Positions 1 to 62,421 of a stretch of DNA of 64,000 nucleotides are shown piece by piece; the first letter of the stretch is position 1; the number at the start of each line of letters is the position of its first letter. Under the pieces are notes generated by a model, which did no database searches, was not told where the DNA came from, and saw only the letters and a list, made by a program, of their open reading frames with translations. Source of the stretch: Escherichia phage FL12; sequence record PP400786; one strand, 5' to 3'. A program made the position numbers and the translations under genes.

Positions 1-43
1 ATAAATATCTCCTATTTCTAAGAGTATTTATGTTCTCAAAATA

Positions 44-115
44 TGGCCCTGGGTGGAATTGAACCACCATCTGGCGATTATGAGTCGCTTGCTTGAACCT
101 TCCAGCTACAGGGCC
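44..115 (-). tRNA. tRNA-Ile (anticodon CAU)
   Basis: Reverse complement folds as a cloverleaf: acceptor GGCCCTG/CAGGGCC, T-arm GGTGG-TTCAATT-CCACC, anticodon loop CTCATAA, 3' CCA encoded. A CAU anticodon would read Met; assigned Ile (AUA-reading, lysidine-type) from T-even phage knowledge. Confidence 0.8.
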
Positions 116-121
116 TTGATA

Positions 122-194
122 TGCTGATTGACGGAATCGAACCGCCGACGTCCTCATTACAAGTGAGGTGCTCTACCTACTGAGCTAAATCGGC
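122..194 (-). tRNA. tRNA-Thr (anticodon UGU)
   Basis: Cloverleaf on reverse complement: D-arm GCTC-AGTAGGTA-GAGC, anticodon stem CCTCA/TGAGG with loop CTTGTAA, T-loop TTCGATT. One C-A mismatch in acceptor stem; CCA not encoded. Confidence 0.8.
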
Positions 195-201
195 GAAATT
201 A

Positions 202-288
202 CGGAGGCGATAGGATTTGAACCTATGAGTCGCCGGAGCGAATGCCGGTTTTCAAGACCGGTGCATTAAACCACTCTGCCACGCCTCC
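202..288 (-). tRNA. tRNA-Ser (anticodon UGA)
   Basis: 87 nt with long variable arm; acceptor GGAGGCG/CGCCTCC, anticodon stem-loop CCGGT-CTTGAAA-ACCGG, T-loop TTCAAAT. CCA not encoded. Confidence 0.85.
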
Positions 289-290
289 AG

Positions 291-364
291 TCTCCGTGGC
301 AGGATTTGAACCTACGACATTCTGCTCCCAAAGCAGACGCTCTACCAAACTGGGCTACACGGAG
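291..364 (-). tRNA. tRNA-Pro (anticodon UGG)
   Basis: Acceptor CTCCGTG/CACGGAG, anticodon stem TCTGC/GCAGA with loop TTTGGGA, T-arm GTAGGTTCAAATCCTGC. CCA not encoded. Confidence 0.8.
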
Positions 365-376
365 TAAATTAAATTT

Positions 377-448
<72 letters not shown>

Positions 449-454
449 AAACTT

Positions 455-541
455 TGGTACGAGAAGTGGGACTCGAACCCACAAGGAAATCATTCCGCAG
501 CATTTTAAGTGCTGTGCCTTTACCAATTTGACCATTCTCGC
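455..541 (-). tRNA. tRNA-Leu (anticodon UAA)
   Basis: 87 nt with long variable arm; anticodon stem CAGCA/TGCTG with loop CTTAAAA, T-arm GGGTTCGAGTCCC, 3' CCA encoded (plus-strand tgg at 455-457). Confidence 0.85.
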
Positions 542-542
542 G

Positions 543-615
543 CTGGGAATAAAGGACTCGAACCTTTGCATCTAGCAGTCAAAGTGCTATGCCTTACCAA
601 CTTGGCTAATTCCCA
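543..615 (-). tRNA. tRNA-Gln (anticodon UUG)
   Basis: Acceptor TGGGAAT/ATTCCCA, anticodon stem TAGCA/TGCTA with loop CTTTGAC, T-loop TTCGAGT. Separated from tRNA-Leu by 1 nt. CCA not encoded. Confidence 0.8.
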
Positions 616-681
616 ATTATTAACAAAGGCTCTCAAACAAGAACCCTTGATGATAGAGGGTATTAATCAGTGCGGTATGAG

Positions 682-709
682 TTAATAATAACAAATAATT
701 CTTAAAGCA
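682..709 (-). promoter_or_regulatory. Putative MotA-dependent middle promoter upstream of the tRNA cluster
   Basis: Minus-strand TGCTTTAAG (MotA-box-like TGCTT) followed about 12 nt later by TATTAT. The same 28 nt recur at 60639-60666 upstream of gene 31. Confidence 0.55.
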
Positions 710-1217
710 AATTAAACATTTTAACGGTCGGCAAAACAATTTCTTCTTCTATATAAGAGTATTTAACACTCTCAACTACACGCAAAAAATCATAATCATA
801 ATACTCAGAAGCATTACCTAAAATATTAATAAGTCCTTCAAGCACTTTATTACCATTCACAAAGAATAAGTCAAATACGCGTTCTTCGTCTTCTTCGGAT
901 TTATTACCAAGGTCAACTTCTATATCAAAGACCTTTTTAATGAATTCTGGATAAAGTTGTTCTGAGAACAGTCCTTCAACCAAGTATTCATAAATAAAAA
1001 GCGATTGCTCGCTGAACAAGCCATTACCACAATAACGTTCAGCTTTAGTACTAGAATGTCTACTTTTAAACTTCTTTAAAAGATATTGAAATTGTAAGAT
1101 TTCATGCTCTTCTACGCCAAACAGTGTTTTAGTTTTATAGTTGTCACCATCATTTTCCCAGGTAGTGACATCAATTACGTAACCCTGTGGAATTGTAGTA
1201 CCTAAACAAATATTCAT
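702..1217 (-). CDS. Hypothetical early protein, 171 aa
   Basis: ATG-initiated ORF, start overlaps stop of upstream ORF (ATGA). Last gene of a four-ORF operon between the internal-protein genes and the tRNAs. No motif recognised. Confidence 0.6.
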   Translation of the reverse strand: MNICLGTTIPQGYVIDVTTWENDGDNYKTKTLFGVEEHEILQFQYLLKKFKSRHSSTKAERYCGNGLFSEQSLFIYEYLVEGLFSEQLYPEFIKKVFDIEVDLGNKSEEDEERVFDLFFVNGNKVLEGLINILGNASEYYDYDFLRVVESVKYSYIEEEIVLPTVKMFNLL

Positions 1218-1507
1218 TTGCTCACCATATTAATGTAAGTATATTCAATACATTCAAGACCCAAAGGATTCTTGAAAATATCATATTCAAGAGGACCTTT
1301 TTCCGTTTCAATAAAGAAATCAAAATTTACTGTATTAAATTTACGGTCTTCCTTCACTAATTTAACCTGAGAAGATGAACGGTCAATGTAAACCTTTTCA
1401 ACTTCAAAACATGTTAAAATGCCATAATCATCAATCAAGGCTTTAGCCGCGTCTTGATCATATTTATATCCATTTTCAATGGATGATACTTTAGCATAAA
1501 GAATCAT
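1214..1507 (-). CDS. Hypothetical early protein, 97 aa
   Basis: ATG start 2 nt after the stop of the upstream ORF; same operon. No motif recognised. Confidence 0.55.
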   Translation of the reverse strand: MILYAKVSSIENGYKYDQDAAKALIDDYGILTCFEVEKVYIDRSSSQVKLVKEDRKFNTVNFDFFIETEKGPLEYDIFKNPLGLECIEYTYINMVSK

Positions 1508-1509
1508 TA

Positions 1510-1890
1510 TCAGCCTTCATCAACAATAGTATGAGTGTGGGCATTTACAATTTGCCACCAATCAAAGCGATTAGAACCATACATCGGTTTGTTTTCATTT
1601 TCTTTGATAATATCACGGAGTTCATCTTCGGTAGCGGCTTTCGCGATTAAATCAGCATATCCACCACGAGGATAATAATTATCACCTGCAAAAAGTAAAA
1701 AGTTTGGTTTAATATTATTAAACTCTTCAAGAGTAATAACTGTTCCACCAGGTTGAACAATCTCTACATAACTATATCCTAATTTTTGAGCAGCATCTAC
1801 TGCTTCAAGCAGGGTATCATGAGCCCATCCAATTTGGCAATCTGGCTTTTCAGATGGATTAGCCTGATAATCCGCGTACACTTTATACAT
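1510..1890 (-). CDS. Hypothetical early protein, 126 aa (ORF track shows a TTG-extended 137 aa form)
   Basis: First ATG at 1890 is preceded by AAAGGTGA; the track start at 1923 is TTG. Protein begins MYKVYADYQ. Function not recognised. Confidence 0.6.
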   Translation of the reverse strand: MYKVYADYQANPSEKPDCQIGWAHDTLLEAVDAAQKLGYSYVEIVQPGGTVITLEEFNNIKPNFLLFAGDNYYPRGGYADLIAKAATEDELRDIIKENENKPMYGSNRFDWWQIVNAHTHTIVDEG

Positions 1891-1891
1891 T

Positions 1892-2077
1892 CTATTCACC
1901 TTTAGAAATTTTATCCATAACAATAGCGATTAAACCAATTAAAAATGCTACTACAAGTGAAAACGCATTTTCTGCTGTAGTTAATAATCCGCATATAAAT
2001 CCAACAAACATTGAAAAACTAAAAGCGGAAGCAGAAATTGCAATAGCAACATTTCGAATTAATTCACAACGTTTCAT
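1892..2077 (-). CDS. Small predicted membrane protein, 61 aa
   Basis: ATG preceded by GAGGAG; two hydrophobic stretches (VAIAISASAFSFSMFVGFICGLL and FSLVVAFLIGLIAIV). First gene after early-promoter cassette A. Confidence 0.55.
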   Translation of the reverse strand: MKRCELIRNVAIAISASAFSFSMFVGFICGLLTTAENAFSLVVAFLIGLIAIVMDKISKGE

Positions 2078-2100
2078 TTTATTCTCCTCGGCAGTTGATA

Positions 2101-2135
2101 GGGTAATAATATCACTACCCTATTTAAAAGTAAAC
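2101..2135 (-). promoter_or_regulatory. T4-type early promoter (cassette A) with inverted repeat around the -10
   Basis: Minus-strand GTTTAC (-35-like), ~18-nt spacer ending in TG, then TATTAT; inverted repeat AGGGTA...TACCCT brackets the -10. Confidence 0.6.
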
Positions 2136-2147
2136 GGTTTTTATAAA

Positions 2148-2456
2148 CTATTTTATTCCGCGTGATGCAATTGTGTTCTGTCGTTTAACACCAGTTTGTT
2201 TAAAGTCATGGTCGTCAATTTGATCGGTACGAGCAACTCCGAATGATGATTTGATTTTAGCTTTAGATCCTTTAGTTATAGAAATAAACATCTCGGAAGC
2301 CCCTTTCTTAAAGTCCGAGGCGATTACTTCAACGCCGTTCTTAGCAAGTGACTTCAGAATTGCCTCCGCATACTCATCGTCAAGACTCGCCTGAGTATTA
2401 ATAACGAATGTCTTTGGCGCAGCCGCTTCATTGATAAATTCTTTAAATGTTTTCAT
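2148..2456 (-). CDS. Candidate capsid-targeted internal protein, 102 aa
   Basis: N-terminus MKTFKEFINE-AAAP resembles the T4 internal-protein capsid-targeting sequence (MKTYQEFIAE); basic C-terminus; own early promoter and AAGGA Shine-Dalgarno. Confidence 0.65.
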   Translation of the reverse strand: MKTFKEFINEAAAPKTFVINTQASLDDEYAEAILKSLAKNGVEVIASDFKKGASEMFISITKGSKAKIKSSFGVARTDQIDDHDFKQTGVKRQNTIASRGIK

Positions 2457-2485
2457 TTTATTTTCCTTATTTTCCTAATTAATTT

Positions 2486-2525
2486 TGATGAGGTAATAGT
2501 ATCACAACCCTATTTAAAAGTAAAC
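2486..2525 (-). promoter_or_regulatory. T4-type early promoter (cassette B)
   Basis: Minus-strand GTTTAC, ~18-nt spacer ending in TG, then TACTAT; shares a 39-nt identical leader (2467-2505) with cassette C (2800-2838). Confidence 0.6.
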
Positions 2526-2798
2526 TCATTTTAAATAAATTGCGTATTTTTTATAACCCGCTGACTCATGACGAAGACCCTTATCATTAGCAAAACGCTC
2601 AATGTTGTTAATTTGATTCTGATCAAGTTCAGAGATGTCAAACACGAAAAAGTTACGTTTGTTACCAACTGTTATATAGTCAGTTAAATCAATATCATAT
2701 AGGTAATTGATGTCAGCAATCAAAGTCTTGACAGCTTTGCTAATTTTTACTTTTTCGTTAAAAGCAGCTTCAGCAATAAATTCTTGATACGTTTTCAT
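2526..2798 (-). CDS. Candidate capsid-targeted internal protein, 90 aa, at the ipI position next to 57B
   Basis: N-terminus MKTYQEFIAE-AA matches the T4 capsid-targeting sequence exactly; predicted prohead-protease cleavage after Glu10. Whether the body is IPI itself or a variant cannot be decided without alignment. Confidence 0.7.
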   Translation of the reverse strand: MKTYQEFIAEAAFNEKVKISKAVKTLIADINYLYDIDLTDYITVGNKRNFFVFDISELDQNQINNIERFANDKGLRHESAGYKKYAIYLK

Positions 2799-2819
2799 TT
2801 TATTTTCCTAATTAATTTT

Positions 2820-2858
2820 GATGAGGTAATAGTATCACTACCTCATCAGTACGTAAAC
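2820..2858 (-). promoter_or_regulatory. T4-type early promoter (cassette C) with 9-bp inverted repeat
   Basis: Minus-strand GTTTAC, 17-nt spacer ending in TG, then TACTAT; perfect inverted repeat GATGAGGTA...TACCTCATC (2820-2847) brackets the -10. Confidence 0.6.
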
Positions 2859-2870
2859 AACTTTGTGAAA

Positions 2871-3567
<697 letters not shown>

Positions 3568-5804: not shown

Positions 5805-6256
5805 TATGCCCCCTTAAAGCCAAGAGCTCGTAATCCATCTTCTGTTAGAATTCTAAATTTTATTCCACGCTTTTCAGCTAAAGATTGTGCTGCTTTCCAT
5901 TTGTCAGTGTTCACAGACCAGGTATAAATTTCATTCATAAATCTTTTCTTCGCTGCGGTTGTTAGATGTGCCGGTTTAACTGGTGGTTGTGTTTCTTTTT
6001 TAGGTTTTATTTCAATAAAAAATTCTTGCCCAGAAGAATCTTTCATCCAAATATCCATGAAGTATCTACGTTTTTTCCCTTCTGCATTACAAAAATAAGG
6101 AATTACTGCTGTTTCACTACCCCATGCAATAATTTCTGGATTTTTATCTAACCATTCAAAAAAGAATTTTTCCCAATTTGATCTATACGTAATTTTTTTA
6201 GGGTCACCTCTATACTTTGATATATTTTTAGGAACCCATTTTCCAGAATATGCCAT
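5804..6256 (-). CDS. 4: Gene 4 head completion protein
   Basis: 150 aa; late promoter TATAAATA about 27 nt upstream on the minus strand; diverges from gene 53. Confidence 0.85.
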
Positions 6257-6267
6257 TGGATTCTCCT

Positions 6268-6290
6268 TATAAATAGATAATATATTTATA
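6268..6290. promoter_or_regulatory. Divergent late promoters for gene 53 (plus) and gene 4 (minus)
   Basis: TATAAATA at 6268-6275 on the plus strand, 28 nt before the gene 53 ATG; reverse-complement TATAAATA at 6283-6290 about 27 nt before the gene 4 ATG. Confidence 0.75.
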
Positions 6291-6303
6291 AACAGGAGGG
6301 CCC

Positions 6304-6894
6304 ATGCTCTTTACATTTTTTGACCCGATTGAATATGCGGCCAAAACGGTGAATAAAAACGCGCCGACTATTCCTATGACAGATATTTTTAGAAACTATA
6401 AAGACTATTTTAAACGCGCTCTTGCGGGATACCGCTTACGTACTTATTATATCAAAGGTTCACCCCGCCCAGAAGAATTAGCAAATGCTATATATGGAAA
6501 TCCGCAGTTGTATTGGGTTTTATTGATGTGTAATGATAATTACGATCCGTATTATGGATGGATTACTTCACAGGAAGCTGCTTATCAAGCATCTATACAA
6601 AAATACAAAAATGTAGGTGGAGACCAGATAGTATATCATGTGAATGAGAACGGTGAAAAATTTTATAATTTAGTATCATACGATGATAATCCATATGTTT
6701 GGTATGATAAAGGCGATAAAGCTAGAAAATATCCTCAATATGAAGGAGCACTTGCTGCGGTCGATACGTATGAAGCGGCTGTTCTTGAAAATGAAAAACT
6801 TCGTCAAATAAAAATAATAGCAAAATCAGACATCAATTCATTTATGAACGACCTTATACGTATAATGGAGAAATCTTATGGAAATGATAAGTAA
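6304..6894 (+). CDS. 53: Gene 53 baseplate wedge protein
   Basis: 196 aa; late promoter upstream; overlaps the gene 5 start by 17 nt. Confidence 0.85.
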   Translation: MLFTFFDPIEYAAKTVNKNAPTIPMTDIFRNYKDYFKRALAGYRLRTYYIKGSPRPEELANAIYGNPQLYWVLLMCNDNYDPYYGWITSQEAAYQASIQKYKNVGGDQIVYHVNENGEKFYNLVSYDDNPYVWYDKGDKARKYPQYEGALAAVDTYEAAVLENEKLRQIKIIAKSDINSFMNDLIRIMEKSYGNDK

Positions 6895-62382: not shown

Positions 62383-62421
62383 GGTAGAGCTATAATATCA
62401 CAACTCTACCGTAAAGTAAAC
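62383..62421 (-). promoter_or_regulatory. T4-type early promoter with inverted repeat, upstream of the cd.2 ORF
   Basis: Minus strand GTTTAC, ~18-nt spacer ending in TG, then TATTAT; inverted repeat GGTAGAG...CTCTACC brackets the -10. Confidence 0.55.

Follow-up and report, generated by a model that had tools for sequence, protein, structure and literature searches.

T4 is the phage studied best, yet roughly half of its genes still lack a function, and the trna block, which is conserved, expressed within minutes and dispensable in the laboratory, is a clean example. The T4 version of the block comprises trna.4, trna.3 and trna.2 (NC_000866 72,628–73,514; UniProt P13322, P13323, P13324). In time-resolved omics of T4, both the RNA and the protein of trna.2 and trna.3 were classed as early, and so was the RNA of trna.4 (PMC9697503, supplement); the product of trna.4 is annotated in T4 as a 'predicted membrane protein'. 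In the transposon sequencing of the HIDEN-SEQ preprint, T4 trna.2, trna.3 and trna.4 were non-essential, with 92–98% of their TA sites hit (saturation 0.92–0.98), as were the Bas37 homologues bas37_0257–0259, and CRISPRi-ART classed all three T4 genes as 'Not Fit', with no fitness effect on knockdown. DRT1, a reverse transcriptase (RT) that acts in defence, has been pulled down from cells infected with T4; of the phage proteins, just two, Inh and Trna.2, were enriched with the wild type relative to RT-dead DRT1. Here we describe the corresponding locus in a 64,000-nucleotide (nt) stretch of Escherichia phage FL12 (record PP400786), referred to below as the window, which is a piece of a Tequatrovirus (T4-like) genome and in which a fourth open reading frame (ORF), ORF171, follows trna.2.

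We propose that the four genes are the early protein-coding leader of a tRNA transcription unit, and that their products would be independent accessory factors, a two-transmembrane hairpin and three small acidic cytoplasmic proteins, that matter on some hosts only and most likely bind host or host-defence components early in infection without acting as one machine. The anatomy and identity of the block are close to certain, the conditional accessory role in host interaction is evenly balanced between right and wrong, and a counter-defence role specifically is tentative; the composite statement, from identity through expression anatomy to accessory host-interaction function, could go either way. 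The feature is already catalogued, a near-identical copy of the block is present in public genomes, and nothing here amounts to a new kind of system. The elements of the locus, in order of transcription, are the following.

2135–2098, minus strand: T4-type early promoter in a PeSL-like (early promoter plus stem-loop) cassette, with −35 GTTTAC at 2135–2130, GTGA at 2115–2112 and −10 TATTAT at 2111–2106.
2077–1892, minus strand: trna.4, 61 amino acids (aa), predicted inner-membrane hairpin with two hydrophobic helices.
1890–1510, minus strand: trna.3, 126 aa from ATG, acidic, two domains.
1507–1214, minus strand: trna.2, 97 aa, acidic and soluble.
1217–702, minus strand: ORF171, 171 aa, acidic, equivalent to AR1 ar1_142 and phrog_2290.
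712–685, minus strand: MotA-type middle promoter, with MotA box TTTGCTTTA at 711–703, a 12-nt spacer and −10 TATTAT at 690–685.
615–44, minus strand: genes for tRNA-Gln, Leu, Gly, Pro, Ser, Thr and Met (ARAGORN and Rfam); the cluster extends past the window start.

The interval 650–2150 is 98.7% identical in DNA to phage vB_EcoM-101117BS1 and 96–98% identical to AR1, SA21RB, CM8 and others. Coding status of the four ORFs is far above chance, as judged from PHROG profile E-values of 1e-34 to 8e-69, from the spread of tblastn relatives (583–803 phage records) and from detection of the T4 orthologues Trna.2 and Trna.3 as proteins. For trna.3, an alternative 137-aa reading from an upstream TTG was judged less likely than the 126-aa ATG start. 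The genes abut closely: the trna.4/trna.3 junction is TAG-A-ATG with a 1-nt gap, the trna.3/trna.2 junction is TGA-TA-ATG with a 2-nt gap, and trna.2 and ORF171 share a 4-nt overlap, ATGA. Shine–Dalgarno-like purine runs (GGAG, AGGTGA, GAAGG and GGTGAG) lie 3–8 nt before the four starts, and the four cistrons are, on this reading of the sequence, translationally coupled. A preliminary description of this DNA had reported four tightly coupled ORFs of 61, 126, 97 and 171 aa, the first of them a two-helix membrane protein, behind an early promoter of T4 type of their own. All four ORFs are present on the minus strand where that description placed them, the hydropathy profile of the 61-aa protein contains two hydrophobic segments, as predicted for such a protein, and GTTTAC-N14-GTGA-TATTAT stands at 2135–2106.

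This element matches the early-promoter consensus (GTTTAC, 14 nt, gtgg, TAttaT), and a consensus scan found TG preceding the −10. Matches to GTTTAC-N18-TAYWAT number four in the 64-kb window, where 0.04 would be expected, and the SA21RB annotation marks an early promoter at the equivalent site, quoting the T4 consensus. Transcription would start at about 2099. The fourth match, GTTTAC-N18-TATTAT at 62392–62421 on the minus strand, has the same GTGATATTAT extended −10 and is distant from the trna.4 block. An 11-bp hairpin at 2123–2098 overlaps the −10 of the trna.4 promoter, with a predicted energy of −12.7 kcal/mol and a z-score of −1.3 relative to shuffled sequence; the corresponding z-scores are −3.4 for the copy at 2829–2858 and +1.6 for the middle copy, which is degenerate. 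No T-run follows these PeSL-like hairpins, which makes terminator activity doubtful.

At the other end of the block, the MotA box TTTGCTTTA overlaps the stop codon of ORF171 (704–702), and the promoter lies 86 nt before tRNA-Gln (615–542, minus strand). Promoters of this class combine a box of the form (a/t)(a/t)(a/t)TGCTT(t/c)A with a TAnnnT −10 that follows at a distance of about 12 nt, and the site here has this arrangement. The same promoter is identical base for base in T4, downstream of trna.2, and is annotated as a middle promoter in SA21RB. According to the SegB paper, transcription of the T4 tRNAs comes mainly from a middle promoter just upstream of the cluster. Between the end of ORF171 (702) and tRNA-Gln (615) no terminator-like site was found. 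The only two such sites in 500–3000 are overlapping, weak T-tailed hairpins at 1000–1021 inside ORF171, a number equal to the chance expectation; if these were active, early read-through into the tRNAs would be attenuated. Rfam identified only the seven tRNAs in 1–3400 and no RNA family on either strand of 616–3400. The tRNA set of the window fits the T2/AR1-type cluster, in which Met follows Thr, and not the T4 type, in which Ile is followed by segB.

The missing terminator and the MotA promoter within the final codons of ORF171 lead us to read the four ORFs as the early leader of the transcription unit to which the tRNAs belong, rather than as an operon closed in itself. The preliminary description had called them a four-gene early operon. 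The unit is not self-contained: it has no boundary at its 3′ end, where it leads on into the tRNA genes, and the promoter of MotA type stands inside its last codons. In the sequence of events that we envisage, host σ70 RNA polymerase would fire the early promoter right after infection, and a single transcript would encode the four proteins and extend into the tRNA genes; later, the MotA-dependent promoter would take over tRNA transcription without the ORFs.

Trna.4 is identical to its T4 counterpart (NP_049748) at 60 of 61 residues (98%) and matches phrog_1692 over 1–61 of 61 (E 1.5e-34), with relatives in 788 phage records. Its hydrophobic stretches, at about 10–35 and 35–58, reach Kyte–Doolittle values of 3.0, and the K/R-rich ends presumably face the cytoplasm. 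The other three proteins are all acidic, with isoelectric points (pI) of 4.5–4.7. Trna.3 (pI 4.5) matches phrog_1411 over 1–126 (E 5.8e-56) and its T4 counterpart by BLASTP with E 2e-44, and all of its close homologues carry a precomputed PF26894 assignment. It is divided into a variable N-domain (1–60) and a conserved C-domain (63–126) with the motifs NFLLFAG..YYPxGGY..DWWQIV. Relative to T4, the N-domain is 32% identical, and thus a different allele, and the C-domain 88%; across homologues the N-domain falls to 20% identity (mean 49%) and the C-domain stays at or above 65% (mean 77%). The C-domain is also found alone in other phages. An internal duplication in Trna.3, both halves of which are predicted to be beta-alpha-beta-beta, was considered and is unsupported (hhalign E=0.98). 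Trna.2 (pI 4.7) is 96% identical to T4 NP_049746, matches phrog_2023 (E 1.8e-48) and has relatives in 803 phage records; PF27001 is precomputed on 45 of 45 homologues, and 46 columns are invariant in an alignment of 22 sequences. Sequence relatives of Trna.2 were absent from the PDB. The C-terminus of T4 Trna.2 reads …CIVNTY…, compared with …CIEYTYINMVSK here, and the different T4 tail adjoins the scar left by deletion of ORF171 from that genome.

Searches of Pfam, NCBIfam and PADLOC returned no significant match for any of the four proteins (PF26894 and PF27001 are newer than the Pfam copy searched, which holds neither), profile searches against all PDB sequences returned nothing credible for the four families, and none of the four proteins has the capsid-targeting N-terminus MKT[FY].EF. 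The earlier remark that none of the four could be assigned to a known family does not hold: families and named T4 genes can be given for them (trna.4, trna.3, trna.2 and phrog_2290). It is right, though, that no function is attached to these.

How might these proteins act? In Trna.3, the fast-diverging N-domain would provide target specificity, and the activity that stays constant would reside in the conserved C-domain. Trna.2 would bind to the DRT1 complex. ORF171 is a phage module of its own with a wide distribution. The association of Trna.2 with DRT1 is the only functional lead for the block, and the T4 protein enriched with DRT1 has 96% identity to that of the window. What makes a counter-defence role plausible is this association together with the neighbourhood (Acb1, IPI and the anti-McrBC protein of Bas37) and the mosaicism of the locus, both of which are described below.

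Several observations weigh against such a role. The database searches of the four proteins revealed no homology, in sequence or in fold, to characterised anti-defence or host-takeover proteins, and with 96–98% conservation relative to T4, trna.2 and trna.4 do not look like genes caught up in a fast arms race. The authors of the DRT1 study left Trna.2 unpursued, and escape mutations from DRT1 mapped to dda and not to trna.2. In two conditional comparisons, the adjusted p was 1.0 for trna.2, trna.3, trna.4 and bas37_0257–0259, and the main text of the HIDEN-SEQ preprint names no conditional phenotype for these genes under RexAB, RnlAB, CBASS, type IV restriction, minimal medium or uropathogenic hosts. 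As for the expression anatomy, read-through into the tRNA genes is deduced from a missing terminator, and the two weak hairpins at 1000–1021 stand in its path.

That the four proteins are independent is indicated by the separate coming and going of ORF171 and of the Trna.3 N-domain. The same evidence bears on the idea that the block encodes a single multi-subunit system, for instance a membrane-anchored complex nucleated by Trna.4 with one common target. Tight translational coupling would favour equimolar co-expression of such subunits, and the order trna.4–trna.3–trna.2 is conserved in Tequatrovirus and Dhakavirus; against this, ORF171 is gained and lost alone and occurs alone in many other phages, the Trna.3 N-domain has been swapped without a matching change in its neighbours, and in the early regions of T4 small genes are as a rule coupled even when they are unrelated. 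We consider a single system most improbable.

Comparison with T4 revealed a mosaic. DNA identity is 94–98% in trna.4, about 50% in the N-half of trna.3, 78–86% in its C-half and 94–100% in trna.2, and 96–100% in the neighbouring gene 57B, whereas the internal-protein genes have been replaced outright. This pattern suggests an arms-race locus, of which it would be typical. Upstream of the block, two different internal-head-protein genes replace the single ipI of T4, as listed here.

2148–2456, minus strand: internal-head-protein gene with its own early-promoter cassette.
2526–2798, minus strand: internal-head-protein gene with its own early-promoter cassette.

The two genes match phrog_2667 and phrog_7673, and their products have the capsid-targeting N-terminus MKT[FY].EFI.EAA. 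In Bas37, one of two genes at the internal-protein locus was recently identified as an anti-McrBC factor (HIDEN-SEQ preprint); the two proteins here differ in length from those of Bas37. The placement of the genes in the same block as acb1 and the internal-protein genes, as described previously, is borne out by the identity of 57B to T4 and by the two PHROG matches upstream. As to presence/absence variation, a check proposed at the same time, ORF171 is absent from T4 and Bas37, both of which have trna.4–trna.3–trna.2.

Mosaicism of this kind would also be expected if the ORFs were neutral or selfish cargo that rides, with no present benefit, in a cassette region prone to recombination through PeSL repeats, conserved tRNA sequences and homing endonucleases. 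Three of the four copies of the early-promoter pattern precede trna.4 and the two internal-protein genes as near-identical cassettes within 800 bp, and replacement relative to T4 has proceeded cassette by cassette. PeSLs, whose consensus for T4/PST is TTTACW-N17-TAYWAT (PMC4122927), have been proposed as mediators of modular shuffling (Arbiol 2010, PMC2839356; Comeau 2014, PMC4122927). ORF171 has been lost in T4, a homing endonuclease occupies its place in Bas37, and the laboratory screens recorded no fitness effect. Purifying selection, however, is strong, with 98% and 96% protein identity to T4 for Trna.4 and Trna.2 and 46 invariant Trna.2 columns among 22 homologues. The trna.4–trna.3–trna.2 trio is retained in about 760–800 phage records from several genera, ORF171 keeps invariant residues in 109 members at about 30% identity, and the Trna.2 and Trna.3 proteins of T4 are actually made. 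A cargo status is thus highly improbable in our view, and conditional accessory factors remain the reading that we prefer.

ORF171 (pI 4.5, charge −14), the equivalent of AR1 ar1_142, matches phrog_2290 over 1–170 with E 8.2e-69. It is present in AR1 and, at 88% identity, in T2, and is deleted in T4, where tRNA-Gln follows trna.2 after 97 bp. T4 has kept about 20 nt of the 3′ end of ORF171, from where homology to the window is restored, as a deletion scar. A word-indexed search had suggested that the family is small; an exhaustive HMMER scan, which covered 1.84 billion representatives, returned 1019 clusters with E-values of 1e-3 or below, 497 of which reached 1e-10 or below; almost without exception they are stand-alone proteins of 130–190 aa. 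In 109 diverse members, which share about 30% identity, E21 and D23 never vary, G12, W20, N22, D25, G34, F50, G64, N65, R146 and V147 are at least 90% conserved (W20, N22, D25, G64, N65, R146 and V147 at least 92%), and the helical middle is variable. The family motifs, a [ST]-W-E-N-D-[GA]-D hairpin, G-N and R-V, are all present here. In the predicted structure (pLDDT 89.7, pTM 0.84), a beta-hairpin carries the W20-E-N-D-G-D25 turn and is followed by a helical insert and a C-terminal strand with R146-V147. The conserved polar cluster of E21, D23, D25, N65 and R146 looks like a metal, ligand or catalytic site. Two candidate motifs were rejected, namely an EF-hand-like calcium loop at ENDGD (a weak match, E=0.14, to a calmodulin-based sensor) and the G[GS]-x9-DxD motif of Pol-beta nucleotidyltransferases; in both cases the motif falls in a beta-hairpin turn, and searches turned up no such fold.

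The 109 relatives had no match among common Pfam families, ORF171 had none among PDB sequences, and its matches in BFVD were uncharacterised phage proteins only, from Klebsiella, Vibrio, Stenotrophomonas and Aeromonas phages. A pattern scan (ENDGDNYK plus [IF][PKN][KQ]GY[VYQ][IL][DEH][VI]T) found no cellular relatives in 185,579 bacterial and archaeal genomes. Relatives of ORF171 without the other three genes occur in Klebsiella, Aeromonas, Xanthomonas and jumbo phages. ORF171 and trna.4 were also considered as an ancient pair, which they are not, as the small ORFs upstream of the homologues in JD18 and in an Aeromonas phage are unrelated to trna.4. A distant relative in a metagenomic phage contig of 77.6 kb (6001–6603) has a 75-aa N-terminal extension and lies between NMNAT-Nudix and NAMPT genes (NAD salvage); this relative also adjoins a Dda-like helicase and an Rnl1-type RNA ligase.

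Homologues of ORF171 are often found close to tRNA genes. They lie 80–400 nt upstream of the tRNA cluster in T-even, Mosigvirus and Dhakavirus types (JS10 is an example), and inside the cluster in Klebsiella phage JD18. In Muenster, a jumbo phage outside the Straboviridae, the homologue precedes tRNA-Leu by 142 nt; in a 97-kb contig, tRNAs flank the homologue on both sides. Of the 80 loci with a homologue in IMG/VR, 40 have a tRNA no further than 5 kb away, and without exception it is on the strand of the homologue. When full-length homologues were grouped into 33 clusters at ≥50% identity, 17 had a tRNA at a distance of at most 2.1 kb and 10 at a distance of at most 500 nt; for clusters outside T4-sized contigs, a subset of the same set, the count was 8 of 21. 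Here, too, gene and tRNAs share a strand in every case, and the nearness extends to several lineages other than T4-like ones. The random-position expectation is a few percent, a rough estimate with no control family behind it, and the Trna.3 family, tried as a control for tRNA adjacency, returned only T-even-like loci and was uninformative. About 40% of the clusters have no tRNA within 5 kb, with Xanthomonas phage BUDD and two metagenomic contigs as counter-examples. The adjacency is a lead and not a finding.

It raises the alternative of a tRNA-support module, in which at least one of the proteins, with ORF171 as the prime candidate, would act on the co-transcribed phage tRNAs through maturation, modification or protection from host anticodon nucleases. 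Consistent with this, ORF171 ends 86 nt before tRNA-Gln with the tRNA middle promoter in its last codons, its homologues adjoin tRNA clusters or lie within them in further genera as well as in Muenster, the IMG/VR and cluster counts exceed the rough expectation of a few percent, and the invariant acidic and Arg residues are compatible with an active site directed at RNA or nucleotides. Yet tRNA clusters sit in accessory, early and co-oriented regions, so that any accessory gene may be enriched there, a point on which there is no control family, and BUDD and the two metagenomic contigs represent the roughly 40% of clusters without a tRNA nearby. In addition, the tRNA clusters of T4 and Bas37 are expressed and work in genomes that lack ORF171, a charge of −14 is unfavourable for RNA binding, and ORF171 has no similarity to known folds of RNA enzymes. 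A tRNA-support module is, on balance, unlikely.

Decidedly unlikely as a whole is a joint proposition with two parts. In the first, ORF171 represents a large and structurally novel family seen in phage sequence only, with the W-E-N-D-G/A-D hairpin, N65 and R146 as an active or ligand site and a functional link to tRNA, for example by maturing the tRNAs of the phage or shielding them from host immunity that targets tRNAs; the second has Trna.2 as a direct binder of DRT1, either as its trigger or as its inhibitor. The reading that we favour, of independent accessory factors that matter on some hosts only, treats ORF171 as a module separate from Trna.2.

Three points go beyond the earlier record: a family of more than 1000 clusters around ORF171 with an invariant hairpin, its frequent nearness to tRNA clusters, and the contrast between the N- and C-domains of Trna.3. 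For a search for accessory functions the block is still a sensible choice, and Acb1, IPI and the new anti-McrBC protein are neighbours of it that proved to be counter-defence factors. More specific starting points than the block as a whole are Trna.2 in relation to DRT1, ORF171 with its conserved site and its tRNA neighbourhood, and the variable N-domain of Trna.3; a function for the ORF171 family, once shown, would annotate more than 1000 phage protein clusters at once.

Set against known systems, the locus is closest to the genomes of AR1, SA21RB, T2 and vB_EcoM-101117BS1, which have the four genes in the same order, all annotated as hypothetical, in an interval that is essentially no different. 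It shares with the T4 trna block the gene order, the strand, the position between the internal-protein locus and tRNA-Gln and the type of early promoter, together with protein identities of 98% for Trna.4, 96% for Trna.2 and 88% for the Trna.3 C-domain; unlike the window, T4 has no ORF171, its Trna.3 N-domain is only 32% identical, and it has one ipI where two unrelated genes stand here. With the PeSL cassettes it has in common an early promoter, here in agreement with the published T4/PST consensus, that is repeated before accessory genes which differ between close relatives; of the three stem-loops only the one at 2829–2858 is convincing, the hairpin of the trna.4 copy is no more stable than shuffled sequence and the middle copy is degenerate. 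The four genes also resemble the neighbouring counter-defence genes 57B/Acb1 (anti-CBASS), IPI* (anti-GmrSD) and Bas37_0260 (anti-McrBC), which are early or packaged, dispensable in the laboratory, cassette-like and located in the same variable region; the four proteins have no similarity to these neighbours in sequence or fold and no defence-dependent phenotype reported to date, and they lack the capsid-targeting N-terminus.

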